Positions 8,498 through 37,732 of a stretch of DNA of 64,000 bases are shown here, piece after piece (positions within the stretch are counted from its first letter, which is position 1; every line of letters starts with the position of its first letter). The notes under the pieces were generated by a model. That model was not told the origin of the DNA. It saw nothing but the letters and a program-made list of their open reading frames with translations, and did no database searches. The stretch comes from Pseudomonadota bacterium (GTDB taxonomy: Bacteria; Desulfobacterota; Binatia; Binatales; Binataceae): assembly GCA_021325025.1 (NCBI GenBank), contig JAJPHZ010000016.1, positions 259,616 through 323,615 of the forward strand, written 5' to 3'. Made by a program: the position numbers and the translations under genes.

Positions 8498-8512
8498 ATA
8501 AGGGTTCTTGCG

Positions 8513-10663: not shown

Positions 10664-10697
10664 TTCGAACCACCCACGCATATCGATCGCGGGAATT

Positions 10698-13364: not shown

Positions 13365-13539
13365 CTGACGATCAGAGCATCCGCAAAGACGGCTTGCGTG
13401 CCGCGCAGGGTCAGTGTCCCCGATCCAAAACCAGGGCCGTTTTGGGCCGGTGCGAGTCCGGCAGGCATGATAGGCTTAGATGGCTTGGGTGGTTAGCGGA
13501 CGCCTTGCAAATGCGGGGTCTCGGAGAGATACTGCGCCC

Positions 13540-16757: not shown

Positions 16758-16762
16758 GCTGC

Positions 16763-19680: not shown

Positions 19681-19770
19681 CAGCGCCCTCCTGATGCCGG
19701 GGCGTGATTCTAGCCTAACCGGGCGCACCTGACACGCGGCAAACGGGGACCGAATGTGGCGTGGATTGCG

Positions 19771-20793: not shown

Positions 20794-20921
20794 GGCATTC
20801 CCCCCTTTTTGCGAGCCTCGGCCGGGAAAGCTCGTTCCCGGCAAAGCCGTGTCAGTGCAAACAAACTAGCAAATTGTGAGGCGAAAGACCAAATAGGGAC
20901 GGATTGGAAAGCGGCCGGCTT

Positions 20922-22163
20922 TCAGCGCTCTTCACCGGTCAGAAAAAGCGCCACCCCCAACAACGAAAACAGCAGATTGGGCAACCACGCCGCCAGCCAG
21001 GGCGGGATAATGGCGGAGCGCCCGAATGAAATCGTAAAGCCCAGCGTGATCCAATAGCCCAGTCCCAGGCCCAGCCCCAAAAGGAAGCCGCGTCCTGCGC
21101 TGGCTGCACGCGGCACCGGATCCAGGCTCAGCGCCAGCCCGCACAACACCATCACCAGGCACGACAGCGGCAACGCGTATTTCACGTCGCGATCGACCAG
21201 GTAAGAGCCGGGGTCCAGCCCGTTGCGGCGCAGTTTGGCGATATACTGGTCGAGTTCGGAAAGGCTGAACTCCTCGGGAGTGAGAATCGCAAAGGAGAAA
21301 TCGCCGGGCTTGGCGTCGAGGTGAAAATTTCCCGCCTGCGCCGCCGCCAGCGCGCCGCGATGCTCCAGGTCCAGCCGCTTCAGACCGCTAAAGGTCCATC
21401 CCTGGCCGTTCCATTGCGCATGGTCAGCGCTATAGATTGCGCGCAGCGTATATTGAGGTCCGATTTGCAGGACGCGCACCCCGTCCAGCCGCTGATGGGT
21501 CGCGTCATAGCTTTTGGCGGCGACAAAACCGCCGCGGATGCGCAGCCAGTTTTGCGCGTTGTACACGAACCGCGGCTGGTTGTGGATCACGCCGTCGAGC
21601 AGGTATTTGGAGCGCCGCGTCGCGGCGGGCACGATGGTTTCGTTCAGCCCGAAGGTTACCGCCGACAGCGCCGCTGCGAGCAGCAGCAGTGGCATCGCGA
21701 TCCCCATTCGGCTAATTCCCAGGCCCTGGAGTGCCAGCAGTTCGCCGTTGCGATTGAGCATCGCCAACCCCAACAGTACTCCTGCCAGAGCGGCGACCGG
21801 AATCAGTTGAGTGGTCATCAAGGGCAGTTTGAGCACCAGATACTCAATGCCGGCCGGGCGAAACAAGCCGTACGCCATCAGGTCGTCGAACTTGTCGATA
21901 AAGGAGGCCAGCAGGTCGATTACGATAAAGGCGATCAGCGCACCCAGGAAGGCTTCGCCGAACATCCGCACCACCATCCAGGCCGCGGTCGGCGGCAGAC
22001 GAAAGCGTTTGCGCCGGCGCACCGGCGCCCCAACGCTGGCAGCGCCCAGCCGCCATGGCGGGGCACCCAACTCGATCGCCGAGGATTCGATTGCCGGCTT
22101 CAAACTTCCACCGCTGCGCGCCGGCCCGGGGCTGCCCGGCGCAGCCGCGCATGCGCCTGCCAT
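20922..22163 (-). CDS. LptF/LptG family LPS export permease (LptG-like)
   Basis: Three TM helices, NGELLALQGLGIS, periplasmic beta region, three TM helices ending PWLAAWLPN; start uncertain. Confidence 0.88.
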   Translation of the reverse strand: MAGACAAAPGSPGPARSGGSLKPAIESSAIELGAPPWRLGAASVGAPVRRRKRFRLPPTAAWMVVRMFGEAFLGALIAFIVIDLLASFIDKFDDLMAYGLFRPAGIEYLVLKLPLMTTQLIPVAALAGVLLGLAMLNRNGELLALQGLGISRMGIAMPLLLLAAALSAVTFGLNETIVPAATRRSKYLLDGVIHNQPRFVYNAQNWLRIRGGFVAAKSYDATHQRLDGVRVLQIGPQYTLRAIYSADHAQWNGQGWTFSGLKRLDLEHRGALAAAQAGNFHLDAKPGDFSFAILTPEEFSLSELDQYIAKLRRNGLDPGSYLVDRDVKYALPLSCLVMVLCGLALSLDPVPRAASAGRGFLLGLGLGLGYWITLGFTISFGRSAIIPPWLAAWLPNLLFSLLGVALFLTGEER

Positions 22164-22308
22164 ATTACGTGTCCGCGCCGCCTGTTATCCAGAGAAGCAG
22201 AGCGTTCGACGCGATCGGCGTTTTGGACTACGATTCGCTCGACGCTGGCGATGTAATGAACCTGGCACACGAACGCCGGCGCACCGCTCCCGGGCATAGA
22301 CACTGCGG

Positions 22309-23439
22309 ATGAAGCTGCTGTTGATTTCCGGCGCGCGCATCGTGGGCGGGGCGGAACGAGTCACGCTGCAACTGGGTGCGGAACTGATGGCGCGCGGCTA
22401 TCAGGTGGAGGCGCTGTGCCCGTCGGCCGGCCAATGGCGCACCGCGCTGACCCGCGCCGGAATTGTGGCGCATCCCGCGCCCATCGGCGGAGCGCTCAAC
22501 TTTCTGACCTCATTCGTAATCGCGCAAGCGGCCGGCACCTTCCGTCCCGACCTTCTGATGGTGACGACCAGCGATGAATGGGTGTGGGCGTGTTTGACGC
22601 CGCGCCGCGCCTGCGCGCCGCGCCTGGTTCTGGTCAGGCATATGGGATTGCCGCTTGCATTGCGGGTGCGGCGGCTGGCGGGATGGCGCGCCGACGCGAT
22701 CGTGGCGGTCAGCCACAGCGTGCGCCAGAGCCTGCTGGCCGGCTCCGCGATCGCACCCGGCAAAGTGCGCGTAATCCCCAACGCGGTCCGCTTTGCGATC
22801 AATTCCAGGGTTCCCGATCCGCTCCAGCGCAGGCTTGCCAGAACGTCGCTGGGCCTGCCCGAGGGCGGCCGATGGATTGGCTTTTTGGGCGGCATCAACC
22901 TGGGCAAGGGAATCGAAGATGTGATGGTGGCGGCGGGGCGTGCCAATCGAATGCTGGGCGATGTGCATCTGCTGGTGTGCGGCAGCAAAGATCTCCGGCA
23001 AAGGACGCCGGATTGCGGCGAGTTGGCGCGCCGCTGCGGGATTGAGGAAATCGTGCACTACATGGGCCAACTCGATGACGTGATTCCGGCGATTACCGCG
23101 TGCGATGTGCTGGCCATCGCGACGCATCGCGCGCTGCGCGAGGGGTTGGCGCAAAGCGCGCTCGACGCGATGGCGTGCGGGACGCCGATTGCCGCCTACG
23201 CGCTGGAGGGCGTGATCGACGCGGTGGGCGAAACCGACGCCGCGGCGGTGCTGGCCCGCCCCGACGACGTCGCAGACCTGGGCGCCGCGATCATCGGCCT
23301 GCTGAGCAATCCCGAACTTGCGGCCTCGATCGCCCGGCGCGGCCTCGATCGCGCCCGAGCCGAGTTTGAACCCGCGCAGATGGCCGACCGTTATGAGCAA
23401 CTGTTTGGCGCGCTGACCGCGGACCGGGCCGGCGACTAG
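22309..23439 (+). CDS. GT4 glycosyltransferase
   Basis: GGAER, GINLGKG and EGLAQSALDAMACG motifs. Confidence 0.88.
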   Translation: MKLLLISGARIVGGAERVTLQLGAELMARGYQVEALCPSAGQWRTALTRAGIVAHPAPIGGALNFLTSFVIAQAAGTFRPDLLMVTTSDEWVWACLTPRRACAPRLVLVRHMGLPLALRVRRLAGWRADAIVAVSHSVRQSLLAGSAIAPGKVRVIPNAVRFAINSRVPDPLQRRLARTSLGLPEGGRWIGFLGGINLGKGIEDVMVAAGRANRMLGDVHLLVCGSKDLRQRTPDCGELARRCGIEEIVHYMGQLDDVIPAITACDVLAIATHRALREGLAQSALDAMACGTPIAAYALEGVIDAVGETDAAAVLARPDDVADLGAAIIGLLSNPELAASIARRGLDRARAEFEPAQMADRYEQLFGALTADRAGD

Positions 23440-25733
23440 GACCAGCCCGGCTTGGGTGGCGTTTCGACCGGACTAAGCTGTTCGGCAAACAATTCACGAA
23501 ACGCGGCGCAGCCGGCAAGCAACTCGGCGGCTGAACCCTCGGCGATGATCATGCCGTCATGCAGCATCGCCACACGCGCAAAGCGGCTGACGGTGGCCAG
23601 CCGGTGCGCGATCACGATTACCGTGCGCCGCTCCAGCCACGGCTTGAGATTAGCGAAGATAGTCCGTTCGGTGTCGGAATCCAGCGCGCTGGTGGCTTCG
23701 TCGAGCACCAGCAGGGCGGGGTCGCGGGCGATGGTGCGCGCCAGCGCGATACGCTGGCGTTGGCCGCCCGACAGGTTGCGTCCCGCTTCGGCCAGATAGG
23801 TGTCGAGCCCGCGCGCCATCGACGCGACGTACCCCTCCAGGCCGGCCAGCATCACTGCCTCATCGATGCGCCGCCGCGGCGCGTCCCAGGCGCCATAGCG
23901 GATGTTGTCGAGCAGCGAGCCGCTGAAGATGAAGGGGTCCTGCTCGGCCACACACACCGCGCGGCGCAAGTCGGGGATGCGCAACTCGGCCAGGTCCTGG
24001 CCGTCGAGCAGGATGCGCCCGGCCTGGGGCTCCACGAATCGCAGCAGCAGGTTGGCAACAGTGCTCTTGCCCGCCCCGCTGGCACCGACCAGCGCAATCG
24101 TCTCGCGCGGTGCGAGGCTGAGGGTGAAATCGGTCAGCACCGGCGTGTGGTCGCCGAAGCCCAACCGGACGCATTCGAAACGCAGTTCCCCGCGCACCGG
24201 CTTGGTCAGCGCGATCCACCCGTCGCGCTCGGCGGGCGGCAAATCGATAATCTCGTACACGCGCACAGCGCAGGCGATCGCGCGCTGCGACATGCTGTGC
24301 ACCTCGCTCAGCCGCCGCAGTGGCTCCACGGTCTGCACCGCATACAGGCAAAAGGCCAACAAGCCGCCGGCAGTAGCGGCTCCGGCCGACACCAGGCGGC
24401 TGCCGTACCATACCACCGTCAACAGGCCGGCGGCGGCGATGAGCCATACCGAGGAGATCAACGCCGCTGACCACAATTCGCTGCGCAGCACCTGGCGGCG
24501 CCAGGCGATATCTCCAGCAACGAAGCGCTGATTTTCCATCGGCTCGGCGCCGAAACCCTTGATGGTGGTAAGCCCGTGAAGCTGCTCGTTGAGCACGGCG
24601 CCCAATTGCCCGGCGGCCTGCTGCGCCGCAGCGCCCCATTTGCGCACCTGCCCGCCCAGACGCGCCAGCGGCAGGGCGACCGCCGGCACCACCACCCCGG
24701 TGATCAGCGCCAGGCGCCAGTTGAGCCGAAACAGCATCGCAATCGCGCCGATCACGACCAGCGTCTCACCCACGCCGCGCCGCAGGATCTCGCGCACGAA
24801 TTCCGACAGCGCGCCGGCGTCATTAAACATGCGCGACATCAGGTCGCCGGTGGCAAATCCGCGCGCGACCCTAAGGTCGGTGGCCAGCAGCCGCTCTTGG
24901 GCGCGGTCGCGCAGCGACTGCACCAGGCGCAGATCGATGCTGCGCAAAGAGTAGCGCGAGAAGAAGATTCCGCACACCATCGCCAGCGCGGTCAACGCCG
25001 CACGTATCAGCAGATGCGACATCTGCGCGCGGTCGCCGGTGACCAGCGGCCCCTCGGTCCACAGCTTGGCGATCCACGTCAGGTAAAGCTGGGCGCCCCC
25101 CAGCATCGCCAGGCTGAGGAAGACCATCGCCAGATGGGCCCGCAGGCGCATGCAATCGCGCAGCAGGCGCAAGAAAATTTGGGCCGAATCCTGCTCCGAG
25201 CGCAGCTCGACGTCGCCCAGACGCGGCACGCGCGCCGCCGCCGAGCGCGCGATGCGCTTCCAATGGCCCACCGTGTCGGCGTACAGCCGGCGCGCATCCC
25301 TGCGGCCCTGCGGCTCGCGCGCCGCACGCGCCGTCACCGCGGCGATCTGACGCATCTTGTGCCGGAACTGACGCCACTGGTCGGCGAGCAGGCGGCGCAG
25401 CGGCCACAATTCCACCGGTATGCGCTGAACACCCAAAGCCCGGCAGGCACGATAGCGCTTGTGACCGTCGGCGATTACAAAACGCGAACCCAATTTGACC
25501 ACGCAGACGGGTGGAAACCGCTCGCCGCGCGCCATCGCCTGGCGATACTCCTCGATGCGTTCGGGCGCGTGCGTGGTGGTGAAAGGATCGACGACGCGCG
25601 CCGCGGCAACGATATGGACGGGGAAGTGCGCCCGCGACGCATCGAAACATGCGGGCGTTTGTGCAACGTCGTCCGATGGTTTCAATGAGCCCGCCACTGA
25701 TATCCCGCCAGCCTCAAGGCATCCGGCGTTCAA
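23436..25733 (-). CDS. ParB/Srx-like N-terminal domain fused to an MsbA-like ABC half-transporter
   Basis: N-terminal FPPVCVV..FVIADGHKRY; TM domain; GASGAGKST, LSGGQRQR, LDEATSALD and IAHRL; one uninterrupted frame; start uncertain. Confidence 0.88.
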   Translation of the reverse strand: MNAGCLEAGGISVAGSLKPSDDVAQTPACFDASRAHFPVHIVAAARVVDPFTTTHAPERIEEYRQAMARGERFPPVCVVKLGSRFVIADGHKRYRACRALGVQRIPVELWPLRRLLADQWRQFRHKMRQIAAVTARAAREPQGRRDARRLYADTVGHWKRIARSAAARVPRLGDVELRSEQDSAQIFLRLLRDCMRLRAHLAMVFLSLAMLGGAQLYLTWIAKLWTEGPLVTGDRAQMSHLLIRAALTALAMVCGIFFSRYSLRSIDLRLVQSLRDRAQERLLATDLRVARGFATGDLMSRMFNDAGALSEFVREILRRGVGETLVVIGAIAMLFRLNWRLALITGVVVPAVALPLARLGGQVRKWGAAAQQAAGQLGAVLNEQLHGLTTIKGFGAEPMENQRFVAGDIAWRRQVLRSELWSAALISSVWLIAAAGLLTVVWYGSRLVSAGAATAGGLLAFCLYAVQTVEPLRRLSEVHSMSQRAIACAVRVYEIIDLPPAERDGWIALTKPVRGELRFECVRLGFGDHTPVLTDFTLSLAPRETIALVGASGAGKSTVANLLLRFVEPQAGRILLDGQDLAELRIPDLRRAVCVAEQDPFIFSGSLLDNIRYGAWDAPRRRIDEAVMLAGLEGYVASMARGLDTYLAEAGRNLSGGQRQRIALARTIARDPALLVLDEATSALDSDTERTIFANLKPWLERRTVIVIAHRLATVSRFARVAMLHDGMIIAEGSAAELLAGCAAFRELFAEQLSPVETPPKPGWS

Positions 25734-25825
25734 GTCTACCCGGAACCGGGCGGCAAAACACGCAACCAGCCGGCTGACGAGTGAGCCGCCTGCACGCAGA
25801 GGGCGTCAGCCCTGCTCCTCCTCCT

Positions 25826-27337
25826 TCATTTAGGCGGAGGCGGAGTGTAAATGCGGCGCGCGAAAGCGTGGGCCGCTTTGAGCACCGCGGCGTCCTCGCC
25901 CAGGCGGCCGACCAGCATCATGCCGACCGGCAATCCCGCCGAGATCGCGCAGGGCAGGCTGATTGCCGGATGGCCGGTCAGGTCGAACTGGCAGGTGTTG
26001 TCGGCCACCGCGAAAGCAGCGCGGGCGTCGGCGCCATTGCCGGGGCGCGGCAGAGGAATCGACTTCATCGGCGTGGTCGGCATCACCAGCAGATCCCACC
26101 GGGAAAGCGCGTCGTCGTAAGCGGCGCGCAAGGTGCGGGTGAGGTTGCGGGCCTTGGCGTAGTAGCGTCCGTGATACGACTGGCGCATGTACTGGCCGAT
26201 CAGCAGCGTGTACTTGATCTGGTCGGGCAGATCGTCGGCGCGGGCCAGGCGCCCGCGCGCAAAAGCGTCGATCAGGCTTACGTTGTGATGGCCGTCCATC
26301 GCGGCGCCAACACTGTTGGCCGCAACCACCGCGCTGATGCCTTCGTTGCCGATCGCGCCGAAGATTGCCGTGCCGATCCGATGCCACGGCACGCAAACCC
26401 TTCCCACTGCGCAGCCCAGCCGCTCAAAGGCCTGCCCCGCTTCCCGCACCGCCTCGTCGACGTCCGTCTCAGCGTGGCTGGTGCCGAAGCCCTCTTCCAG
26501 CAGGCCCAGCCGCAGGCCTTTGACGTCGCCGTCCAGCGCCCTGCTGTAGGGTTGTGCAACCAGTCGATTGATTGCCTGGCGGACGTCAAACCCGTCGGGC
26601 CCGGCGATTGCCTCCAGCAACAGCGCCACATCCTCGACGTTGCCTGCCATCGGCCCCAGATGGTCCAGATTGGGATCAAGCGAGACCGCGCCCGTGTAGG
26701 GAACCAGCCCATAGCTGGGCTTAAGCCCGTAAACTCCGCACCAGCTCGCCGGAATCCGGATCGATCCACCCTGGTCCCCGCCGATTGCCATGTCCACCTC
26801 GCCCGCGGCGAGCAGCGCGGCGCTGCCACCCGAGGAGCCGCCCGCATGGCGCGTCAAGTCGTAGGGATTGAGAATCGGGCCGGTGTCGGCGTTGAGATCG
26901 AAACACAGCCGCCCGCACGCGGCTTTGCCCACGATCCTCCCACCGGCGTCGAGGATGCGCGAAACCACCGTTGCGTCGGCTTCGGGGACGTAGCCCTCCA
27001 GTACGCTGCTGCCGTTCATCATCGGAACGCCGGCGACGCAAACGTTGTCCTTGATCGCGACCGTCTTGCCGGCCAGCAACCCGCCCGATGCGCCGGCAAT
27101 GTCGGTGCGCCAGTACCATGCGCCGAGCCGATTCTCCTCGGGCCGCGCGCGCCATCCGGGCGTCCGTGGATAGCGCACCGGCAGGGCTGGCTCGGGCAGT
27201 TCGTCGATCCGCCCGTACGCCTCCATCGCGTCCGCGGACATCGCGCGAAACCGCTCGAGTTGTTCTGAGGTGAGGTTGAGGTTGAAGCCCGACGCGATAC
27301 GGGCGAGCTGCTGCGTGGTCGGCGGTTTGGGCGTCAT
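25826..27337 (-). CDS. Amidase signature family enzyme
   Basis: AIKD (Lys), GGSSGGS and GDQGGSIRIPA triad motifs. Confidence 0.93.
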   Translation of the reverse strand: MTPKPPTTQQLARIASGFNLNLTSEQLERFRAMSADAMEAYGRIDELPEPALPVRYPRTPGWRARPEENRLGAWYWRTDIAGASGGLLAGKTVAIKDNVCVAGVPMMNGSSVLEGYVPEADATVVSRILDAGGRIVGKAACGRLCFDLNADTGPILNPYDLTRHAGGSSGGSAALLAAGEVDMAIGGDQGGSIRIPASWCGVYGLKPSYGLVPYTGAVSLDPNLDHLGPMAGNVEDVALLLEAIAGPDGFDVRQAINRLVAQPYSRALDGDVKGLRLGLLEEGFGTSHAETDVDEAVREAGQAFERLGCAVGRVCVPWHRIGTAIFGAIGNEGISAVVAANSVGAAMDGHHNVSLIDAFARGRLARADDLPDQIKYTLLIGQYMRQSYHGRYYAKARNLTRTLRAAYDDALSRWDLLVMPTTPMKSIPLPRPGNGADARAAFAVADNTCQFDLTGHPAISLPCAISAGLPVGMMLVGRLGEDAAVLKAAHAFARRIYTPPPPK

Positions 27338-27409
27338 ACGCTTGCTCCTGATGCAAAGCTGGTAGCACGGCGAAGTCGCGAAGTCATCCGCAAAGCGCGG
27401 GCCAGCGCG

Positions 27410-28336
27410 TCAAACCAGCGCGCCGCCGGCGATCGCCTCGAGGATGCGCAGCGGACTCATTTCGGGCGCAATCAGCGACTCGAGCGGCACGAAGAACGTC
27501 TGCTCCAGCGCGTAGCGGCCCGACAGCACCGCATGAGGGACGGCATCGGTAAACGCGATCCAGGTCGAAGCGGGCGGAAATTCATGGCGCTGCTTGGAAC
27601 AATCGCGCTGAAAGGCCTGATTGTCTTTGAGATAGTCGTGAAAGCGCAGCGTGAAGCGGTCATAGCAAGAGCGTTGAACGAGCTTGATTCCCACACCGCG
27701 CAAGGCCGCCGACGCCGCATCCCCAAGCTGCCGCGTCAATCCGCGGCGGCGCGCGGTATCAGCGCCGAGGCCCGCCTCGCGCGCCATCCGCGCGGCCAAC
27801 TCCGCGAAGGTTTGCGAAGTGATCCATACGCGCGGCTCATCGGGATGGATGTTGGTGAAAAACCGCAGGATTCGCCGGCCGCGCGCGGGGCGTGTGGGAA
27901 ATGAATCGATGTGAATCAGATCGTTGCGCGAGCGGCCGTGCAGTTGGCGGCCGCGCTCCTCGATCGGTCTGAAGCTGGTGAGATCCGTTTGCAGGCCCGG
28001 CGCGTAAGGCGCCAGCAGTTCCATCGCCGCTGCGCGTACCGCTTCCGCGTAACTGCGCAGCACACGCTCAAGCGCTCGCGCGTCGGTGCCCGAACGGGAA
28101 AAACCGCGCACTCGGCCCGAGGAAGGTTCATAAGAGATGTTTTTTACAAACGCCGAGCCGCTCTGGCGCACCTGGGTGAGAAAGCGCCGGTCCTCCTCGC
28201 TTATAACGGGAAAATGCGGCAGCACCAGGATGTCACCGCGCTCCAGCCGATCGCAACACCATCGCGCGTGCTCAGCCGCCGCGCCCGGGTCACGCCATCC
28301 GCACTCGGTAAAACCGGCGATTTCGACCGCACCCAT
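27410..28336 (-). CDS. kdoO: Kdo hydroxylase family protein (KdoO-like)
   Basis: KNISY, SFRP, HIDSFPTRP..GRRILRFFTNI, FHDYLK and FTDAVPHAVLSG..LEQTF. Confidence 0.85.
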   Translation of the reverse strand: MGAVEIAGFTECGWRDPGAAAEHARWCCDRLERGDILVLPHFPVISEEDRRFLTQVRQSGSAFVKNISYEPSSGRVRGFSRSGTDARALERVLRSYAEAVRAAAMELLAPYAPGLQTDLTSFRPIEERGRQLHGRSRNDLIHIDSFPTRPARGRRILRFFTNIHPDEPRVWITSQTFAELAARMAREAGLGADTARRRGLTRQLGDAASAALRGVGIKLVQRSCYDRFTLRFHDYLKDNQAFQRDCSKQRHEFPPASTWIAFTDAVPHAVLSGRYALEQTFFVPLESLIAPEMSPLRILEAIAGGALV

Positions 28337-28387
28337 GATTCGCGAGCCGACCTGCGTCCGCGGTTGCGTGCCGCACCACCCGATCAG

Positions 28388-29461: not shown

Positions 29462-30627
29462 TGTTCGGGATGGCGCAGGATGATGCGTTCGAGCGCAGCG
29501 TTGTAAAGCCGGGTGTTGGCCGCGACAGTCTGCTCGGCGCCGCCGCTTTCCACCGTGGGCAGCGCTTGCTCGAAACGCAGGACGTGGCAGCCGTCGCGCT
29601 CGCGCCACAGCGCTGCGGGCACTACCGGCGCGCCGGTGCGTATGGCGATCAGCGCCAGGCTGCGGAAGGTCCACGCGGGCGCGCCGAAAAAATCCACCAG
29701 CACGCCGTCGCGCCCACCCGCATGCTGATCCATTATGAATACCACCGCGTCGCGCGCGGCCAGCCGCCGCAAAATCGTTTCAAGCGAACCGCGTTTGGGT
29801 AAGACTCCCAGGCCGCTGTTGCGCATCCGGCGCACCACCAGCCGCTCCAGGTAAAGGGGCAGCGGACGGCGCAGCACGTGGAAGCGCCCGCGCCATTGGG
29901 GGAATTTCTCCATCGCTGCGGGCAGCGCGACTTCCCAATTGCCGAAATGGCCCGCCAAGACCAGAACGCCGCGGCCCAGCTTGTAGGCGTCCAGAGCCGC
30001 CGCGACATTTTCCACGCGCACCGCGGGGCGGCGCGCCCACGGCATCAGGTTGCCGACGAATTCCGCCAGGGAGCGCGCCAGATGTCCATAAAAGGCCTGC
30101 GCCAGTGCAACGATCTGGTGATCGTCAAGGGTCGCACCGAAGGCGCGCCTGAGATTGGCGAGCACCACGCGGCGGCGCACCGGCAGGCAATAGTATATGA
30201 ACTTGCCCGCGGTGGGCGCAGCCAGCCGGCGCGGCTGACCGATCGCCATCGCGGTGGCGTGGGTGCCGTCGTGGCTGAGCGAGAGCGCAATATCGGCCAT
30301 CCAATGGCGCGCCATCGCGTCGGCGGCGCGCGCGGTGCAATTGACGCGCGGGGCGCCGTAGCCCTCGGAGAGGATTTCGAAGTCGCCGGCCTCCAACTCG
30401 CCCAAGGCCGTCTCGCGCGGGAAAAGTTTAAGGCAGGCTTCCTTGGCGGCAAAACGGGCCGCCAGGCGCGCCGCGTCGCGGCCCCGTGCCGCATCGTCCA
30501 GCTCGCGCTGGGAAAAGATGCGCAGCAAGTCCTGGCGCGGCGTTTCTTCCAGCAGCCGCCGCATGCGTGCGATTTCCACCAGATCGATGGCGGGGCGGCC
30601 GGCTGCCGATGTCTCAGGCGTGCTCAT
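29425..30627 (-). CDS. Fusion of holo-ACP synthase (AcpS) and a lipid A late acyltransferase (LpxL/HtrB family)
   Basis: IDLVE..RFAAKEA..LSLSH, then GHFGNWE, MDQH and PEQWIWMHRRWK; ATG overlaps the upstream TGA. Confidence 0.9.
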   Translation of the reverse strand: MSTPETSAAGRPAIDLVEIARMRRLLEETPRQDLLRIFSQRELDDAARGRDAARLAARFAAKEACLKLFPRETALGELEAGDFEILSEGYGAPRVNCTARAADAMARHWMADIALSLSHDGTHATAMAIGQPRRLAAPTAGKFIYYCLPVRRRVVLANLRRAFGATLDDHQIVALAQAFYGHLARSLAEFVGNLMPWARRPAVRVENVAAALDAYKLGRGVLVLAGHFGNWEVALPAAMEKFPQWRGRFHVLRRPLPLYLERLVVRRMRNSGLGVLPKRGSLETILRRLAARDAVVFIMDQHAGGRDGVLVDFFGAPAWTFRSLALIAIRTGAPVVPAALWRERDGCHVLRFEQALPTVESGGAEQTVAANTRLYNAALERIILRHPEQWIWMHRRWKPH

Positions 30628-31919
30628 GGCGTTGCATCGGGCGGTGCTTTGAGCAAAAGCGCGGTATTCATGCCGCCAAAACCGCGCCCCAGTACCAGCG
30701 CGATGTCGCCGTGCAGCGCCGTTGCCGAGGCGGAAACCGCCAGCGGCAGGCATTGCGGATCGGGGTCGCGCAGCGCGCCGATACCGGGCGCGGCGCCGTT
30801 GCGCAGGCATTCGAGCACCAGCACCGCCTCCAGCGCGCCCGCCGCCGCCATGGTGTGTCCCAAGGCCCACTTGAACGAAGTGACTGGCGGCATGTCGGCG
30901 CCGAATACTCGCCGGATGGCGTTGGCCTCGGACCGGTCGGAGTTGACGGTGCCGTTGCCGTGGGCGGCGATCATTGCGACATCGCGCGGAGTGATCCCGG
31001 CCGCCTCCAGCGCCATCTCCATCGCGCGCACCGCTCCGTCGCCATCAGCGCGAATCCCCAACACTCCGAGCGCCTCGGTGGTCACACCCGCCCCGATGAT
31101 AATTCCCAGCACCGGCGCATGGCGCTCCGCCGCCGCCGCCTGCGTCTCCAGCACCATCGCCGCCGCGCCCTCGCCCAACAGGCATCCGCTGCGGCCCGCG
31201 TCAAAGGGCCGCGTCGTATCGGCGGTCAGCAACCCCAGATGGTAGAGGTTGAGGATTGCTTCGGGCTCGATTGGCGAATCGTGTCCGACCGCGACCGCCC
31301 GGTCGGCGTCGCCCGTGCGCAGCGTCTCCATCGCCTCGATAATCGCCATGGTTGCGCTGACGCTGTGGTTGGTGATGCAGGAATTGGCGCCCTTGAAGCC
31401 GTAGGCGATTCCCAGGTAGCACAGCACGTTGTTGGGCAGCGCCTGCAGCAGCCAGGTGGGATTGACGCTTTCGCCCAGCTTCTGTCCGAAGACGCGCAGG
31501 TCGCCGCCGCCCGCTGCCATCGCGTTCAGAAAATCATACTGATAGTGATAGGCCACGCCGCCGCATCCGGTGAACACCGCGGTCCGCTCGTTGAATTCCA
31601 CCGCCTGCGCGCCGGGCAGCGCGGCGCGATACTCCAACATCGCCGAAGCCGTGACCGCGCGGCTGGCGGCATACAGGCCCAGCAGGTCGGTGCGGCGCAG
31701 GCGCTGCACCGACTTGAGCAGTCTGCGGTCATCGAAAATTGCACCGGCGTCGATCCGCTCGACGCCCGCGGCAAGCGGCGCAGGCCAGCCGGCCGAGTCC
31801 CACTGCCGCAGCGGCGCAAAGGCAGTGCGGCCCGCGCGCAGCGCCCGATAGATCTGTGCGGGCTCGCTGCCGAGCGCGCATATCGCTCCGATGCCGGTGA
31901 TTGCGACGGGCGCGCTCAT
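30624..31919 (-). CDS. Beta-ketoacyl synthase homolog with Ser at the catalytic Cys position
   Basis: VAITGIG, GEGAAA, AHGNGT, KWALGHT and GFGG motifs; TNHSVS replaces TACAS. Confidence 0.88.
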   Translation of the reverse strand: MSAPVAITGIGAICALGSEPAQIYRALRAGRTAFAPLRQWDSAGWPAPLAAGVERIDAGAIFDDRRLLKSVQRLRRTDLLGLYAASRAVTASAMLEYRAALPGAQAVEFNERTAVFTGCGGVAYHYQYDFLNAMAAGGGDLRVFGQKLGESVNPTWLLQALPNNVLCYLGIAYGFKGANSCITNHSVSATMAIIEAMETLRTGDADRAVAVGHDSPIEPEAILNLYHLGLLTADTTRPFDAGRSGCLLGEGAAAMVLETQAAAAERHAPVLGIIIGAGVTTEALGVLGIRADGDGAVRAMEMALEAAGITPRDVAMIAAHGNGTVNSDRSEANAIRRVFGADMPPVTSFKWALGHTMAAAGALEAVLVLECLRNGAAPGIGALRDPDPQCLPLAVSASATALHGDIALVLGRGFGGMNTALLLKAPPDATP

Positions 31920-33214
31920 GCGGCGACATCCTGCGGATTGCGCAAAACCAGGCAGCTATTGGAGCCGCCGAATCCGAATGAATTGGAGATGGCAAGGCCA
32001 ACCCGGCTTCGGCAGGCCACTTCGCGAACGAAATTGAGGTCGCATTGGGGATCGGGGTCGTCGAGGTTGGCGCTGATCGGCAGCGTCGAATGGTGGATTA
32101 CCAGCGCGCAAATCGCCGCCTCCACGGCGCCCGCACCGGCAATCAGATGGCCCATCAAGCTTTTGGTCGAACTGACTTTCACCTGCCGTGCATGCGCGCC
32201 GAACACCGCCTTGATCGCCGCACATTCGCTGCGGTCGTTCATGACCGTCGAGGTGCCATGGGCGTTGATGTAGCCGACTTCGTGCGGCTGCGCTCCGGCA
32301 TCCTGCAGCGCGGCGCGCATCGCCTGGATTGGACCGTCGCCCGACGGATGGGAATCGGTAATGCGGTAGCTGCTGAGCGAATTGCCGTCGCCGGCCAGCT
32401 CGGCGTAGATGCGCGCGCCGCGCCGGCGCGCCGCCTGCCATTCCTCCAGCACCATGAACCCGGCGCCCTCGCCCAGCACAAAACCATTGCGCGTGCGATC
32501 GAAGGGACGGCTGGCGCGGGTGGGCCGTTCGTTATCGGTGGACAACGCGCCGAGCAGGCTGAAGGCGGCCAGCCCGACGGGATTGATCATCGAGTCGAAG
32601 CCGCCGGTCAAAACAAAGTCGACGCTGGCGCGCCGAATCAGACGCATCGCCAGTCCGATCGCCTGGCCGCCCGACGCGCAGGCAGTATGGACCGAACCCG
32701 CGTAGCCGCGGATACCGAAGCGTTGTACCAGCAGCGCCAGTCCGGCGTTGGCCTGATTGCGCGCATAAGCGATCGGATCGGGGGTCGGCGCGCTGGGCGC
32801 GAACAGCAGACGCGATGCGAGTTCGCCGCCGGGCGCGAAGCGGCGCTGAAATTGCGCCAGTTCCTCGTACGCCACGCCCATCATCCCGCTGCCCGCAACG
32901 CAGCCCCAACGCTGCGCCGTCTGCGGCTGGGGGCCGACGCCCGCGTCTTGGATGGCTTCCTGCGCCGCCGCCAATGCGAAAAGGGCGTGGCGGGTCGCGA
33001 ACTTGAGCAGTTTGCGATGGCGGTCGTGAACGGGCGCAGCGAAATCTTTTACCTCGGCGGCGATCCGGACCGGGTAGCCGCCGGCGTCAAAGGCGCCGAT
33101 CGGAGCGATGCCGCTGCGGCCCGCGAGCAGCGCGTGCCAGGTCGTGGCGGTGCTGTTGCCCAGCGGTGTCACCAGGCCCAGGCCGGTAATTGCCACGCGC
33201 CGGCGTACTGGCAT
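31916..33214 (-). CDS. fabF: Beta-ketoacyl-ACP synthase II (FabF-like)
   Basis: TACASG, NAHGTST, KSLMGH and SNSFGFGG motifs; start at ATG 33214 or GTG 33220. Confidence 0.92.
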   Translation of the reverse strand: MPVRRRVAITGLGLVTPLGNSTATTWHALLAGRSGIAPIGAFDAGGYPVRIAAEVKDFAAPVHDRHRKLLKFATRHALFALAAAQEAIQDAGVGPQPQTAQRWGCVAGSGMMGVAYEELAQFQRRFAPGGELASRLLFAPSAPTPDPIAYARNQANAGLALLVQRFGIRGYAGSVHTACASGGQAIGLAMRLIRRASVDFVLTGGFDSMINPVGLAAFSLLGALSTDNERPTRASRPFDRTRNGFVLGEGAGFMVLEEWQAARRRGARIYAELAGDGNSLSSYRITDSHPSGDGPIQAMRAALQDAGAQPHEVGYINAHGTSTVMNDRSECAAIKAVFGAHARQVKVSSTKSLMGHLIAGAGAVEAAICALVIHHSTLPISANLDDPDPQCDLNFVREVACRSRVGLAISNSFGFGGSNSCLVLRNPQDVAA

Positions 33215-33216
33215 CG

Positions 33217-33642
33217 TCACGCGCCGCCCGCGCGCATGGCGCGGATTACCATCTTGCACATCGTTTCCACCGTAAACAGGGTCGGCACATCGGCAAGATT
33301 CATGTGCGGCCGGAAGCTTTGCGCCGGCACCTCGCTCAAGTACTCGCGCAGCCGCGCCAGCCCCGCCTCGGTCAGCACGCCGGCGGTTTCGAATTGCGCC
33401 TGGGGCAGGTCGCCGCGCGCGTCCTCGACGATGCGTCCGCGCGGAATCTGAATTTTGAATTCACGCTCCAGTCTGAATACCATGTCGAGCAGGTCGATCG
33501 ACTCCGCCTCCAAATCCGCAAACAGGCGGCTACTGAGGCGGACTTCCGCGGGGTCGCGCGCCAGCGCCTCGGCGATCACTCTGGCCACCTGCGGATAGAC
33601 GGCTTGGATTTCCTCTTTGCTGATCGCAACCGGCATACTCAC
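33217..33642 (-). CDS. Acyl carrier protein, long form with an insertion
   Basis: DLEAESIDLLDMVFRLEREF phosphopantetheine motif; C-terminal FTVETM; about 140 aa. Confidence 0.88.
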   Translation of the reverse strand: MSMPVAISKEEIQAVYPQVARVIAEALARDPAEVRLSSRLFADLEAESIDLLDMVFRLEREFKIQIPRGRIVEDARGDLPQAQFETAGVLTEAGLARLREYLSEVPAQSFRPHMNLADVPTLFTVETMCKMVIRAMRAGGA

Positions 33643-34415
33643 TCCATCTTGAAGCCGCCGTCCACGTAAATGATTTGACCGGTGATGTAATCGGCAAAGC
33701 GCGAGGCCAAAAACACCACCGCGTAAGCAACCTCGATGGGCTGTCCGTAGCGGCGCAACAGGATTCGCGCCAGCGCCTGCTCGCCCGCGGCGTCGCGGAT
33801 AGGCTTTGACATCGTGGTTTCGATCAGGCCCGGCGCCACCGCGTTGACGGTGATTTTGCGCGGCGCCAACTCCACCGCCAGCGCTTTGGTAAAAGCGTTG
33901 ACCGCACCCTTGCTGGCGGCATAATTGGTCTGCCCGCGCCCCGCCATCTCGGCCGCCACCGAACTGATATTGACGATTTTTCCCGAGCGCTGCGTAATCA
34001 TGTGCGGAACCACGGCGCGCGTAATATTGAACACGCCGGTCACGTTGGTTTCCAGCACCGCGCCGACGTCAGCGGGCTCCAGCCACGGCAACAGATTGTC
34101 GCGGATGACAGCGCTGTTGTTGACCAGCACGTCGATACGGCCATGGCGCGCAACGGTGCGCTCCACTACCGCCGCGCAAGCGGCGGGGTCGCGCACGTCG
34201 GCCTGTTCGCCAAATGCGCTTTGCCCGCAGGCCTGGATTTGCGCCGCGACTTCGTCGGCTGCGGCGCGATCGGCGCGATACAGAAACGTCACCGCCGCCC
34301 CCTCGGCGGCAAAGGCCTGGACAATCGCGCGGCCGATGCCGCGGCTACCGCCGGTTACTATCACCGATTTGCCGGACAGGCCCGAATCGCCAAGCATACT
34401 GCGCCGCTCATCCAC
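33639..34415 (-). CDS. fabG: 3-oxoacyl-ACP reductase (FabG-like SDR)
   Basis: TGGSRGIG, NISS, GQTNYAASK and VAPGLIET motifs. Confidence 0.85.
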   Translation of the reverse strand: MDERRSMLGDSGLSGKSVIVTGGSRGIGRAIVQAFAAEGAAVTFLYRADRAAADEVAAQIQACGQSAFGEQADVRDPAACAAVVERTVARHGRIDVLVNNSAVIRDNLLPWLEPADVGAVLETNVTGVFNITRAVVPHMITQRSGKIVNISSVAAEMAGRGQTNYAASKGAVNAFTKALAVELAPRKITVNAVAPGLIETTMSKPIRDAAGEQALARILLRRYGQPIEVAYAVVFLASRFADYITGQIIYVDGGFKME

Positions 34416-35181
34416 TGATCGAAAATCCGCCGTCGACCACCAGGATATGGCCGGTGATCATCGCGGCTTCGGGCAGACATAGCAGAAAAACCGCATCCGC
34501 CACATGGCCGGGCAAAAGCGCCGGGCCCAGCGCGGCCCGTTCGGCGAACTCGCGCAGCATGCGCTCGCGCGCCGCAAACGCCTTGAGCGCGTCGGTGTCC
34601 ACCACCGCGGCGCTGACCGCGTTGACGCGGATGCCACGCGTGCGGCCCAACTCCATCGCCAGGCTGCGCACCAGGGCTTCCAGGGCGGCCTTGGAGGCGC
34701 CGATAAAGCCGTAATCGGGCAGCGCAAAGCGCGCGCCGAGGCTGGAGACCGCGATGATACGGCCGTCGTTGCCCATCAGCGGCGCGGCGTGCTGGGCTAG
34801 CAGGTTGAGCGCCAGAGCGTTGGTCTCCATGCACCAGCGCCAATGCTTGAGCGTCATGTCCAGGGTGGGCTTGAGCACTCCGCTGGCGGCATTGCTGACC
34901 ACGATGTCAAGACGGTTGAAGCAGGCGGAAAACTCGCCAAACAGTTCACCGACGCTTTGCGGATTGCCGACGTTGGCCGCGATTGGCACCGCGCGGCGCC
35001 CAAGCGCGGCGAGTTCGTCGCACAGCGCGCGCGCCTGGCCGTGAGCGTTGAAGTATACCGCCGCCACCTCGCAGCCGGCGGCGGCCAGCTTCAGTGTAAT
35101 CGCGCGGCCGATGCCGCGCGAAGCTCCGGTGACCAGCGCTACTTTGCCGGCCAACGGCGATGGTTCGGCGCTTTGCGGCAC
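34408..35181 (-). CDS. SDR enoyl-ACP reductase (FabL-like)
   Basis: TGASRGIG, SNAASGVLKP, YGFIGASKAALE (YX6K spacing) and VDTDAL. Confidence 0.82.
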   Translation of the reverse strand: MPQSAEPSPLAGKVALVTGASRGIGRAITLKLAAAGCEVAAVYFNAHGQARALCDELAALGRRAVPIAANVGNPQSVGELFGEFSACFNRLDIVVSNAASGVLKPTLDMTLKHWRWCMETNALALNLLAQHAAPLMGNDGRIIAVSSLGARFALPDYGFIGASKAALEALVRSLAMELGRTRGIRVNAVSAAVVDTDALKAFAARERMLREFAERAALGPALLPGHVADAVFLLCLPEAAMITGHILVVDGGFSISG

Positions 35182-35217
35182 GTCGCGCTCCCAGGTTGCA
35201 TCCGCAGCCGCGCGGCG

Positions 35218-36426
35218 CTACGACGCTGCCCAGCCGGCCGAGCGCGCCCGCGCCGGCGATTCCTCGACGTCACGCCCCAGCAGCTCCATCACCGCGCACG
35301 CCGCCCGCCGCATCACGCCGGTGGGCCCCAGCACGTCGGGCAGATGCGCCAGGCGGGCCTGGATGTGACGGCGGCGGGTTTCATTGGTGAGCAGCGACCA
35401 GACTTCGTCGGCCAGATGGAGCTCATCGACGTCCTTTTGGAAGAACTCCGGCTGCACCGCCTCATCGAGCAGGATGTTGACCATCCCGATAAATCGCACC
35501 CGCATCAGGCGGCGTCCGACCCGATAGTAAAGCGGACGGCAGCGGTAGGCGATCACCGAAGGAATGCCGAGCAGGCCCACTTCCAGCGTGGCGGTTCCCG
35601 AGCATTGCAGCACCACCCGGGCGCGGCTGAGCACCGCGTAGGAGTCGGGATTGTAGATGACGGCGTTGCGCAGGCCGCTGTGACGCAGCGCGCTTTCCAG
35701 CGGCGCGCGCAACTCCTCGCCGGCCAGCGGGATGGCGAACTGAAGGGCGGGGTTGCGAAGGGTCAGCAGGCGCGCCGCACCCAGCATCGGCCCGCACAGG
35801 TCGCGGATTTCCTGGATCCTGCTGCCCGGCATCAGCGCGACCAGCGGGCGGGCGGGGTCCAATCCCAGCCGGTGCATGGCCGCGGCGGGATCGTCAATGA
35901 CACGCACCGCGTCGCGCAGCGGATGGCCCACCCACAGGCTGTCGGCGCCCGCCTCCTTGTAGATTTCCGCTTCTTCCCGAAAAGCGGACAATACCCGGGT
36001 CGACAGCGGTACAACCAGCGGCAAGCGCCATCGCCCCCACAGCCACACCTGGGGCGGAAAGAAGAACACCACCGGGACCCCGCGCGCGCGCAGCGAGCGC
36101 GCCAACATTAAATTGAGGGTTTCGGCGTCGATTAAAATCGCCAGGTCAGGCCGCACACGGTCAAACAGCGCGCGCGCCGCACGCCATACGTGCAGCACCG
36201 AGCGGATTGCCCGCACCGAATCGGGCGGACCGATGGTCGACACCGCGGTGCTGCTAACCGCAACCTCAACCCCGCTGCGCGCCATCGCCGGTCCTCCCGC
36301 CCCGAGGAGCCGAATCGCCGGGTCCAGGTCGAGCAGGGCGCGCGCCAGGCGTCCTCCGTTTTGGTCGCCGGACACGTCGCCCGCGACCATGCAAATCGTC
36401 AGCGGTTTTCGATCGGGCTTACGCAT
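35218..36426 (-). CDS. lpxB: Lipid-A-disaccharide synthase (GT19), divergent
   Basis: AGDVSGD, PPQVWLW, VGHPL, MPGSR..E and SGTATLE motifs; ATG 36426 overlaps the waaA stop region. Confidence 0.88.
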   Translation of the reverse strand: MRKPDRKPLTICMVAGDVSGDQNGGRLARALLDLDPAIRLLGAGGPAMARSGVEVAVSSTAVSTIGPPDSVRAIRSVLHVWRAARALFDRVRPDLAILIDAETLNLMLARSLRARGVPVVFFFPPQVWLWGRWRLPLVVPLSTRVLSAFREEAEIYKEAGADSLWVGHPLRDAVRVIDDPAAAMHRLGLDPARPLVALMPGSRIQEIRDLCGPMLGAARLLTLRNPALQFAIPLAGEELRAPLESALRHSGLRNAVIYNPDSYAVLSRARVVLQCSGTATLEVGLLGIPSVIAYRCRPLYYRVGRRLMRVRFIGMVNILLDEAVQPEFFQKDVDELHLADEVWSLLTNETRRRHIQARLAHLPDVLGPTGVMRRAACAVMELLGRDVEESPARARSAGWAAS

Positions 36427-37732
36427 GATCCGCCGTGAGGAAAGGACCGAGTTCATCGAGATAACGCCGTGTAACCGCCGCGGCATCGGGAAGCGTCCGC
36501 CGCTGCAGCGCAAGCACGCTGTTGCGCAGGCCTTCATCTTGAAGCCAACTCCGCAGCCGCGCCGCCAGTTGCTCTGGGCTGGATACCACAGCTTCGGGCG
36601 TAACCGCCATCAGTCTGCGCGCCTCATGTTCAAAATGGGCAAAATGTGCGCCGAAAAGTACCGGAACGCCGCTGTGGAGCGCTTCAAACGGATTGTGCCC
36701 CCCAAATTTTCCGAACCCGCCGCCGATCACGGCCAAAGTCGCTATCGCATAAAAATTCCGCAATTCGCCCATCGTGTCCAGTACCAACACGCCGCGCCAG
36801 CCTTGACCCGGCGGCAGGCGACTGCGCAACACCGCCGCCAGACCGCGCGCGGACGCCTGGCGCAAGGCCACCGATGCGTCGCGCCTATGGCGTGGCGCCA
36901 CGACAAAACGCACCTGCTGAGTGCGCACGGCAGCGATCGCGTCGAAGACCAGCGGCAGTTCGGCATTGTGCACACTGCCAAAGACCACCAGCGGCTGAGC
37001 TGGGGCGAGGCCCAGTGCATCGCGTAGAACGGACGCGCCGTTTTGCGCAATTTCCGGCAGCGCTTTCAGGTTGCCCGCCGCCACGCAGCGCTGCGCATCC
37101 GCACCCAGAGTAATGAACCGCGCGCGCTCGGTTTCGTTCTGGGCCAGGATCCGACTCAAGCGCCGAATCGTGGGCGCGATCAGGCTGCGAATTGCGCGAT
37201 AGCGCGGCATATCGCCGGGATAAATCCGCGCGCTCAGCGCAAGTACCGGCCGCCCGCGGCGATGGGCCTCGAAAACCAGCCGGGGCCAAAGCTCGGTTTC
37301 GATCAGAAACAGCGCCGCGGGCTGCCAGAGGTCGAACGCCCGCCTTATCCATCGGGGCACGTCCCATGGAACCAGGGCAGCGAAGGTGTCGGGCGCAGCC
37401 ACGCGCAAGACGTAGTCAACGCCGGCGCGATTGGCGGCGGTCAGGACGGCCGGGAAGCGGTAGCCGTGCTGACGCAGCACCGCGATCAGGCGCAGGGCGG
37501 CTGCCATCTCCCCCGCCGACGCGCCGTGCAGCCAAATCGCGCCACGACCGGCGGCCGGCAAGCGGCCGGTGCGTGCTCGCAACTCCGCGGCCGACGCGCC
37601 GCCCGCATAAGCCACAGCCAAGGCCGGTGCGAAGGCCCCGCGCGACAGCGCCGCGTAAAGTCTTTCCCAGGCTGACAGCCCGATGAATTCTGTGTTGCGT
37701 CCGGACATGAAGAGCCGGCTTTCCGTTGCCAT
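36419..37732 (-). CDS. waaA: Kdo transferase (GT30)
   Basis: WLHGASAGE, ETELWP, GNLK, APRH, DTMGEL and GGHNPFE motifs. Confidence 0.92.
   Translation of the reverse strand: MATESRLFMSGRNTEFIGLSAWERLYAALSRGAFAPALAVAYAGGASAAELRARTGRLPAAGRGAIWLHGASAGEMAAALRLIAVLRQHGYRFPAVLTAANRAGVDYVLRVAAPDTFAALVPWDVPRWIRRAFDLWQPAALFLIETELWPRLVFEAHRRGRPVLALSARIYPGDMPRYRAIRSLIAPTIRRLSRILAQNETERARFITLGADAQRCVAAGNLKALPEIAQNGASVLRDALGLAPAQPLVVFGSVHNAELPLVFDAIAAVRTQQVRFVVAPRHRRDASVALRQASARGLAAVLRSRLPPGQGWRGVLVLDTMGELRNFYAIATLAVIGGGFGKFGGHNPFEALHSGVPVLFGAHFAHFEHEARRLMAVTPEAVVSSPEQLAARLRSWLQDEGLRNSVLALQRRTLPDAAAVTRRYLDELGPFLTADHA

Follow-up and report, generated by a model that had tools for sequence, protein, structure and literature searches.

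Lipid A acylation sets the stiffness and permeability of the outer membrane and its recognition by the innate immune system. To our knowledge, the very-long-chain system of rhizobia and Legionella is the only well-studied case in which a private acyl carrier protein (ACP) and fatty acid synthase feed lipid A. That lipid A genes can have paralogs is not new, and Albers et al. in 2007 reportedly described such paralogs in Legionella. In Leptospira they include lpxB1/lpxB2 and lpxD1/lpxD2, as given in the available part of PMC4758666. The rhizobial cluster, in the available part of PMC11901934, is ordered acpXL-fabZXL-fabF2XL-fabF1XL-adhA2XL-lpxXL and places a fatty acid of very long chain on lipid A. 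Here we analyzed a 14-gene cluster that invites comparison with both kinds of system, located in a 64,000-nucleotide stretch of a Binataceae genome of 5.36 Mb and 43 contigs (G000:C43:259616-323615; "the window" means this whole stretch, G000 is its genome, G001 onward are other genomes, and L- and C-numbers denote loci and contigs). The cluster joins paralogs of late lipid A genes to a six-gene acyl cassette, and we give a probability of about 60% to the reading that it is an accessory branch of the lipopolysaccharide (LPS) pathway that installs a privately made acyl chain, and not a stand-alone pathway.

Proteins were assigned to families by Pfam and NCBIfam profile searches, using the curated equivalog cut-offs for NCBIfam, and paralogs of the 14 cluster proteins were sought in their own genome by tblastn. 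Together with family searches of the genome, this revealed a complete ordinary lipid A pathway outside the cluster. About 50 kb away on the same contig, behind bamA and skp, a minus-strand run at C43:227.5-236 kb comprises fabZ, lpxA, lpxI, an oxidoreductase gene, lpxB, msbA, waaA and lpxK, the last four at C43:227.5-232.8 kb with canonical waaA at C43:228630-229859. The genes lpxC, lpxD and kdsA lie on C3, C14 and C15, the canonical lptF/lptG pair is on C22, and two ordinary lpxL-family genes are present elsewhere in the genome. Cluster and canonical proteins share 36% identity for LpxB, 33% for WaaA and 32% for MsbA; kdoO and the cluster ACP were found by tblastn in single copy. An earlier note, made from the DNA alone, had named the families, order, strands and coordinates of all 14 genes, and these are borne out by the open reading frames (ORFs) and profile searches. 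It was also right that lpxA, lpxC, lpxD, lpxI, lpxK and kdsA are missing from the cluster, as all were located only outside it. The note had allowed that these might be the genome's only lpxB, waaA and msbA copies; second, canonical copies of all three, and of lptF/lptG, were found elsewhere. Its description of the cluster as self-contained did not survive, because the early enzymes, LpxK and the supply of 3-deoxy-D-manno-octulosonate (Kdo) are encoded outside and Pfam recognized no FabD or FabH among the 14 cluster genes. Nor does the window hold a dedicated dehydratase gene, a gap on which the note made no comment: tblastn with two dehydratases from cassettes elsewhere matched only the housekeeping fabZ region at C43:235.5 kb. 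Since the full canonical pathway is present elsewhere, the cluster is an extra, accessory copy of late lipid A steps only. Of the second, parallel pathway that had been proposed there remain the additional late-step paralogs, found in a minority of relatives; the early steps are shared with the canonical set.

Several further genes were noted around these two sets. A second lpxA (G000:C14:7673-8557, L141; TIGR01852, 290 bits) stands alone, with a phage-type integrase gene, a thiolase-like gene and a ChsH2-like OB-fold gene as neighbors. The oxidoreductase between lpxI and lpxB at the canonical locus is of the GFO/IDH/MocA type (G000:C43:232900-233900; L142:8948-9892), and a DegT-type aminotransferase gene, syntenic in relatives, lies at window positions 40962-42128, 3 kb from the cluster waaA. 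The two recall GnnA and GnnB, which give certain lipid A molecules a 2,3-diamino sugar backbone.

The cluster consists of 14 long ORFs with high G+C content at third codon positions (GC3), spanning window positions 20922-37732 (Table 1). Overlaps of 4 or 8 nt occur at five junctions (waaA/lpxB, ENR/fabG, fabG/ACP, fabF/KS2 and KS2/fusion), and the other cluster junctions are gaps of 2-128 nt; these are operon-type junctions. The fabF gene starts at the ATG at 33214, 2 nt past the ACP stop, and the fusion gene at 30627, in an ATGA overlap with the KS2 stop, so that the first start codon of its ORF is not used. A genomic-island signal was sought and is not clear, with G+C contents of 65-68% in the cluster and about 64-65% in three stretches elsewhere in the genome.

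Table 1. Genes of the cluster, with window coordinates, strands and profile matches. SDR, short-chain dehydrogenase/reductase; ENR, enoyl-ACP reductase; KS, ketosynthase.
Gene or product	Position	Strand	Matches
waaA2, Kdo transferase paralog	36419..37732	-	PF04413 E 1e-42; 33% identity to canonical waaA
lpxB2, lipid A disaccharide synthase paralog	35218..36426/36537	-	PF02684 E 5e-69; TIGR00215 243 bits, cut-off 190
SDR-type ENR, FabL-like	34408..35181	-	NF005975 FabL 303 bits, cut-off 328
FabG-type ketoacyl-ACP reductase	33639..34415	-	NF009466 FabG 238 bits, cut-off 222
Dedicated ACP with 45-residue insert	33217..33642	-	PF00550, residues 18-71 only
FabF-type condensing ketosynthase	31916..33214 (ORF to 33259)	-	NF005589 420 bits, cut-off 387
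KS2, FabF-like partner without catalytic Cys	30624..31919	-	PF00109 and PF02801
AcpS::LpxL-family acyltransferase fusion	29425..30627	-	PF01648 and PF03279
GT9 heptosyltransferase, WaaF-like	28388..29461	-	TIGR02195 201 bits, cut-off 135
kdoO, Kdo 3-hydroxylase	27410..28336	-	PF11004 E 6e-84
Amidase-signature enzyme, doubtful member of the system	25826..27337	-	NF005565 654 bits
ParB/Srx-fold domain::MsbA-like ABC exporter (MsbA2)	23436..25697 (ORF list: 23436-25733)	-	PF00664 and PF00005
GT4 glycosyltransferase, convergent with msbA2	22309..23439	+	PF13439 and PF00534
Extra LptG-type permease (LptG2)	20922..22163	-	TIGR04408 240.1 bits, cut-off 240

To follow the paralogs among relatives, we used a set of 31 genomes (its own and others from the genus, family and class). 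All 31 carry a canonical-type LpxB (32-41% identity), which is broken into pieces in G004 and G007. Ten of them, namely all seven of the genus together with G012, G018 and G027, also have LpxB2 (at least 52% identity), and the AcpS::LpxL fusion occurs in exactly the same ten genomes, the other 21 having neither. Across the class, five of 201 evenly sampled genomes, the window's genome included, gave a fusion-like match at E <= 1e-60, and this spread, like that of LpxB2, indicates an accessory, patchily distributed system. In a quick tree of 42 LpxB sequences all LpxB2 proteins form a single clade (SH-aLRT 100, stem 1.17). G005 branches as sister to the rest of the genus both there and in the canonical clade; relative to canonical Binatia LpxB, LpxB2 may stem from duplication or from transfer. 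Of 46 columns near-invariant among 32 other LpxB proteins, LpxB2 keeps 32 and differs at 14, its fixed changes including E17D, R131G, P150R and F151E.

The genomic context is also shared. In all seven relatives whose cluster neighborhood was retrieved, waaA2 adjoins lpxB2, though fragmented in G004, and G001, G003, G005, G006, G012 and G018 share the order waaA2-lpxB2-cassette; with the same gene order in relatives, the cluster is not a chance assembly. waaF follows the fusion in G003, G004, G005, G006 and G012, and kdoO is then present in G003, G005 and G018, and in G006 past an 8-kb gap. An msbA2 with its N-terminal domain occurs in G006, G004 and G018, and the G018 cluster contains an LptF/LptG pair as well. 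Another Binatia metagenome-assembled genome (MAG; locus L024) has the order cassette-msbA2-GT4, followed at some distance by waaF, a ParB-like domain gene and a PAP2 phosphatase gene, and the convergent pairing of the GT4 gene with msbA2 recurs both there (45% identity) and in G018 (38%). The G004 cluster stands apart: in G004:C26:545000-580000 (L097, L098), waaA2, lpxB2, ENR, ACP, fabF, the fusion, waaF and kdoO are each recovered as 2-4 tblastn pieces, on a 790-kb contig where five flanking genes and msbA2 are whole, and the block from ENR to msbA2 lies about 14 kb from waaA2-lpxB2 on the opposite strand. These pieces may reflect decay of the cluster or an indel-rich assembly.

As in Leptospira and Legionella, a second lpxB is thus found in some members of a lineage only, beside a complete canonical pathway. 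This likeness raises the possibility that LpxB2, WaaA2 and MsbA2 are condition-specific isozymes doing the canonical jobs under other regulation (stress, growth phase), yielding ordinary LPS with one acyl chain swapped and no separate lipid species or export route. Lipid A paralogs that are differentially present or expressed are known from Leptospira (in the available part of PMC4758666) and from Legionella, LpxB2 itself passes the LpxB equivalog cut-off, and LpxK and the early enzymes are single-copy or encoded outside the cluster. We consider this explanation unlikely, although it is the strongest of the competitors, given the long LpxB2 stem, the altered columns, the strict co-occurrence of the paralogs with the acyl cassette, and a cluster flippase with an added domain that, like the extra Lpt permeases, points to an altered substrate. 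By their description, the Leptospira and Legionella paralogs also differ from those of Binataceae, which form one operon with a private fatty acid synthase, KdoO, a flippase and a core transferase.

The cassette comprises six genes, encoding the ENR, FabG, ACP, FabF, KS2 and the AcpS::LpxL fusion. The first of its two SDR proteins carries Y-x6-K, a spacing that we take as the mark of enoyl reductases, and comes close to the FabL equivalog score; FabG carries Y-x3-K and passes a FabG model. In FabF the Cys, His, His and Lys residues are conserved, the Cys in 60 of 61 sequences. In KS2, by comparison, the nucleophile column holds Ser in 39 of 51 sequences, Gly in four, and Val, Cys, Thr or Ala in two each, while the His/His/Lys residues are kept in 50-51 of 51; the Ser read in the window by the earlier note therefore represents the usual state. 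A position so varied cannot be that of a required nucleophile, and we read KS2 as a putative non-condensing partner that would form a heterodimer with FabF and probably sets chain length. The analogy is with the ketosynthase-chain length factor (CLF) pairs of type II polyketide synthases, in which a condensing ketosynthase gene likewise lies beside a homolog without the nucleophile Cys, to which a 4-nt overlap couples it in translation. Unlike a CLF, KS2 does not have Gln in place of the ketosynthase Cys, and it retains His/His/Lys; unlike those systems, the cassette implies full reduction by ketoreductase, dehydratase and enoyl reductase.

The phosphopantetheine Ser motif of the ACP is intact in the alignment. 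Between helix II and the last helices the protein has an insert of 45 residues, conserved in all 13 aligned orthologs, for which an AlphaFold2 model (pLDDT 84) predicts three extra helices at residues 69-101. Solved ACPs match the canonical part only and none covers the extra helices (TMq <= 0.53); the specialized ACP of R. palustris (2kw2) matches no better than ordinary ACPs. The fusion at the end of the cassette, which had been called from the DNA alone, is real, with both Pfam domains in one frame, and at least 119 fused protein clusters were found in metagenomes (at least 120 with the window's own). Among its invariant columns are D15, K62 and E63, which lie in the AcpS part, and, in the acyltransferase part, H227...E232 (HX4E). 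Its best solved relatives are PatA (E 1.5e-16), AcpS (8.7e-13) and LpxM (1.3e-11).

The earlier note's analogy to the rhizobial acpXL-lpxXL system is apt. As described in the available part of PMC11901934, that cluster likewise encodes an ACP of its own, a pair of FabF-like ketosynthases, a dehydrogenase, a dehydratase (present in most lineages of our cassette) and an LpxL-family acyltransferase at the end of a co-directional operon with overlapping junctions. The cassette differs in that its ACP bears the insert, one ketosynthase lacks the catalytic Cys, two SDR proteins (a ketoreductase and an enoyl reductase) replace the Zn-type dehydrogenase, and the acyltransferase is fused to its own AcpS; in Binataceae it is furthermore embedded among lpxB, waaA, waaF and kdoO paralogs and the dehydratase is missing. 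Judged by NCBIfam models rather than by direct sequence comparison, the ACP, KS2 and acyltransferase fall below equivalog cut-offs, and only generic FabF and FabG subfamily models are passed. The cassette is analogous to AcpXL/LpxXL and probably not orthologous to it. Full-text literature searches returned no description of the fusion, the cassette, an lpxB2/waaA2/msbA2 cluster or Binatia lipid A.

To determine how widely the cassette occurs, we scanned one genome per species (185,579 species), which gave 385 candidate loci; the best 80 were kept for all locus counts. These best 80 come from Binatia, Methylomirabilota (NC10), one Kaistiaceae MAG and, above all, Burkholderiales/Casimicrobiaceae MAGs. 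By tblastn, FabF, KS2 and the fusion are present throughout and ENR, FabG and ACP in 72-73, the misses being loci that end at a contig edge; wherever the contig reaches far enough upstream, the six genes are kept together at about 47-84% identity. Lipid A genes accompany few of these loci (waaA five, lpxB2-type six, waaF at 51% identity or more six, kdoO four), all of them Binatia-like (L006-L009, L016, L021 and L024). The cassette is therefore a portable module and not particular to the window locus. Although the waaA2-lpxB2-cassette order holds among relatives, the cassette mostly travels without lpxB, waaA, waaF or kdoO. A FabA-like dehydratase of 270-300 aa, which completes the elongation cycle, is encoded between ACP and FabF in 71 of the 80 loci; of the other nine, five are loci cut by contig ends, and four, L006-L009, are members of the window's clade whose regions are complete. 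With no dedicated dehydratase in the window's clade, the housekeeping FabZ would have to dehydrate there.

Five cassette genomes from outside the window's family all carry LpxB, as one copy in four and as two in G035, the genome of L016. Among five cassette genomes searched for PF03279, the fusion is the only such gene in three: G031 (NC10), G033 (Kaistiaceae) and G222 (unpublished), of which the two checked for LpxB, G031 and G033, have one copy each. Any LpxL-type secondary chain that these three bacteria add would be the work of the fusion. This, together with the Binatia context (waaA, lpxB, kdoO, GT9, LptF/G, PAP2), makes lipid A the most likely acceptor. The locus L013 belongs to a genome flagged as unpublished. 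Besides a cassette that includes the dehydratase, L016, whose record is titled Candidatus Margulisiibacteriota, has waaA2, lpxB2, waaF and kdoO; in the tree, the two LpxB copies of this genome fall with Binatia sequences, and the taxon label of the record looks doubtful.

Further neighbors of the cassette emerged from a clustering based on GC3 ORF picks, which makes the counts approximate. A hydroxylase of the LpxO/OlsC type is encoded directly downstream of the cassette in 19 loci and a dienelactone hydrolase near it in eight, and about 29-30 loci have upstream genes for an ICMT-like methyltransferase, a WS/DGAT-like protein and hydrolase-like 399-aa proteins. In L022, L025, L047 and about 30 other Burkholderiales loci, the upstream set lies 0-4.5 kb from the cassette and includes an ICMT-like membrane methyltransferase, a 437-aa WS/DGAT- or condensation-like protein and one or two of the 399-aa proteins, which have a GHSQGG serine-hydrolase-like motif and no family match; the LpxO/OlsC-type hydroxylase and dienelactone hydrolase genes are downstream. 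These neighbors suggest a more elaborate lipid product in Burkholderiales.

Taken with the likeness to PatA, the Burkholderiales neighbors keep alive the explanation that the product is a glycolipid other than lipid A. The LpxL-family domain would then acylate a sugar hydroxyl, as mycobacterial PatA does on a glycolipid, or some other lipid, while LpxB2 (GT19) and WaaA2 (GT30), having drifted, would use new acceptors and MsbA2 would export a novel envelope glycolipid. Of the solved relatives of the acyltransferase half, PatA scores best, ahead of LpxM, several cluster proteins score under equivalog cut-offs, and the genes beside the Burkholderiales cassettes are not lipid A genes. The anchor acyltransferase of the Vi antigen, presumably an LpxL-type homolog, offers a precedent. 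Its anchor is a glycolipid with a dedicated acyltransferase, according to the available part of PMC9597891. We nevertheless hold this to be rather improbable: KdoO, WaaA, the GT9 heptosyltransferase, the LptF/G-type permeases and the PAP2 phosphatase point to Kdo-lipid A chemistry, and the fusion is the sole LpxL-family enzyme in three genomes, of which the two checked for LpxB carry it. Aryl polyene (APE) clusters combine a ketosynthase and its partner, an ACP, a ketoreductase, a dehydratase and an LpxL-family acyltransferase. A type II polyketide or APE-like pigment system with a product lipid-anchored by the LpxL-like acyltransferase would match that content (the dehydratase in most lineages) and is very improbable, as saturated chains are implied by the Y-x6-K enoyl reductase, which 72 of 80 loci have kept, the neighbor clustering shows no second ACP, ammonia-lyase, adenylation enzyme, Lol-like carrier or RND exporter among the conserved neighbors, and the KS2 column is Ser or varied instead of the chain-length-factor Gln.

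Beyond the cassette, the lipid A branch would be served by an exporter and a Kdo-modifying enzyme of its own. MsbA2 belongs to the type-B ABC exporters and scores best against the MsbA family (TIGR02203, 381 bits); since this is below the cut-off of 602, its assignment as MsbA rests on context. Its fusion to a ParB-like domain, also called earlier from the DNA, is upheld by sequence matches in the PDB (SbnI 1.4e-4, ParB 2.5e-4) and by fold matches, the Pfam hit to PF02195 (E 0.006) being under threshold. The modeled N-terminal domain (core pLDDT 83-91) has a predicted ParB/Srx fold, with 44 Foldseek matches in the PDB at E <= 0.001, the best to Noc (1.5e-6), with ParB-CTP, sulfiredoxin and SbnI structures close behind; every match listed is to ParB, Noc, KorB, PadC, sulfiredoxin, SbnI, a serine kinase or an uncharacterized Pyrococcus protein. 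ParB, Noc, sulfiredoxin, SbnI and free serine kinase are nucleotide-binding proteins, and the modeled domain resembles them over about 80 residues (rmsd about 2-3 A). It differs from ParB-type proteins in lying on the cytoplasmic N-terminus of an ABC lipid exporter, and the model predicts, in place of the DNA-binding helix-turn-helix that follows in ParB, two long helices leading into the membrane domain. The fusion recurs in 32 protein clusters, and a DGHKR motif at the position of the ParB GERR box is invariant in 22 of 22 N-domain sequences. In L024 (16157-17280) a ParB/Srx-like domain is a stand-alone gene of 162 aa, directly after waaF and before the PAP2 phosphatase gene, and the 584-aa MsbA2 of that locus is without the domain.

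KdoO scores 282 bits against PF11004 (threshold 25) and 216 against NF053719 (cut-off 300). The known substrate of KdoO is Kdo on lipid A, and the enzyme acts after the Kdo transferase and before heptosylation, according to the available part of PMC8533242. That the genome has kdoO in the cluster only speaks for a lipid A product.

The identities of the genes, their paralogy and conservation, their co-occurrence and the intactness of their catalytic motifs are all observed, and from them we infer an acceptor, a chain type, an order of steps and roles for KS2, the ParB/Srx domain and LptG2. LpxA, LpxC, LpxD, LpxI, LpxK and Kdo would be drawn from elsewhere in the genome, and the cluster would add LpxB2 as disaccharide synthase and WaaA2 as Kdo transferase. 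The three-helix-insert ACP, once activated by the fusion's AcpS half, would serve a private elongation unit, in which FabF with its non-condensing partner would extend the chain, the partner probably setting its length, FabG and the SDR enoyl reductase would reduce it, and the housekeeping FabZ of this clade would dehydrate it. The LpxL half would then move the chain from the ACP to lipid A or a Kdo-lipid A intermediate, probably as a secondary acyl chain. KdoO would turn a Kdo into its 3-hydroxylated form Ko, the GT9 enzyme would begin the core, MsbA2 would flip the product with a nucleotide-binding ParB/Srx domain at its cytoplasmic end, and the extra LptG may adapt the Lpt machine to that product.

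Several observations weigh against an accessory lipid A branch. The changes in LpxB2 at otherwise invariant positions suggest that its chemistry may differ, MsbA2, WaaA2 and KdoO all fall below NCBIfam equivalog cut-offs, and the acyltransferase half is slightly nearer to mycobacterial PatA than to LpxM. Lipid A genes are lacking in the vicinity of most cassette loci, and the acceptor may be something other than lipid A. LpxO-type hydroxylases, such as those found beside the cassette, also act on ornithine lipids. In the window's clade the cassette has lost its own dehydratase, the linkage of LptG2 and the amidase to the cluster is poor, and the cluster genes found in pieces in G004 suggest that the system is dispensable. 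On the side of expression, a search of sequencing runs for the locus returned nine DNA runs and no RNA run.

A more far-reaching version of the accessory-branch reading, which we put forward as tentative and on balance doubtful, is that Binataceae with this cluster make two chemically distinct lipid A-based glycolipids side by side. The second would be built by specialized LpxB2 and WaaA2 with a chain made by a ketosynthase/pseudo-ketosynthase pair on the insert ACP, and exported by MsbA2 and extra LptF/G, the ParB/Srx domain linking export to lipid completion in the role of a nucleotide-dependent gate or phosphotransferase; the AcpS::LpxL cassette would represent an undescribed, widespread second type of private-ACP lipid A acylation in Burkholderiales, Methylomirabilota and Binatia. 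The finding points to a second, differently built private-ACP system in abundant, mostly uncultured soil and groundwater lineages, with testable features in the three-helix carrier module, the Cys-less synthase partner and the acyltransferase with its own carrier-activating enzyme. As arranged in Binataceae, the system can also serve as a natural experiment on the extent to which late enzymes, flippase and Lpt permease must change with the lipid.

The two outlying genes that the earlier note had counted in the cluster are present, and their membership is loose. The amidase gene is syntenic in only one of the seven relatives (G003), which rules it out as a core member, and it has two paralogs at 45% identity elsewhere on C43. 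LptG2 is 46% identical to the canonical LptG on C22 and has no LptF partner gene beside it; the genome holds three PF03739 genes in total. Its orthologs in G001, G002, G003, G005 and G006 (71-78% identity) lie on contigs other than that of the cluster, and the G004 copy is in two pieces (65-76%). A neighboring 357-aa gene (19771-20844) was considered as a divergent LptF and discarded as such; it has no Pfam or NCBIfam match and its product looks secreted, repeat-rich and beta. Downstream of lptG2 and on its strand, positions 15348-20844 hold this gene, one for a 513-aa protein with a coiled-coil N-terminal part and a class I methyltransferase domain, and GT2 and GT4 genes, which is probably a surface-glycan operon; a radical SAM/SPASM gene (13480-15327) lies on the opposite strand. 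Window positions 6001-12000 are unlike the rest of the window, with a G+C content of 58-60% and an AT skew of -0.18 to -0.26.

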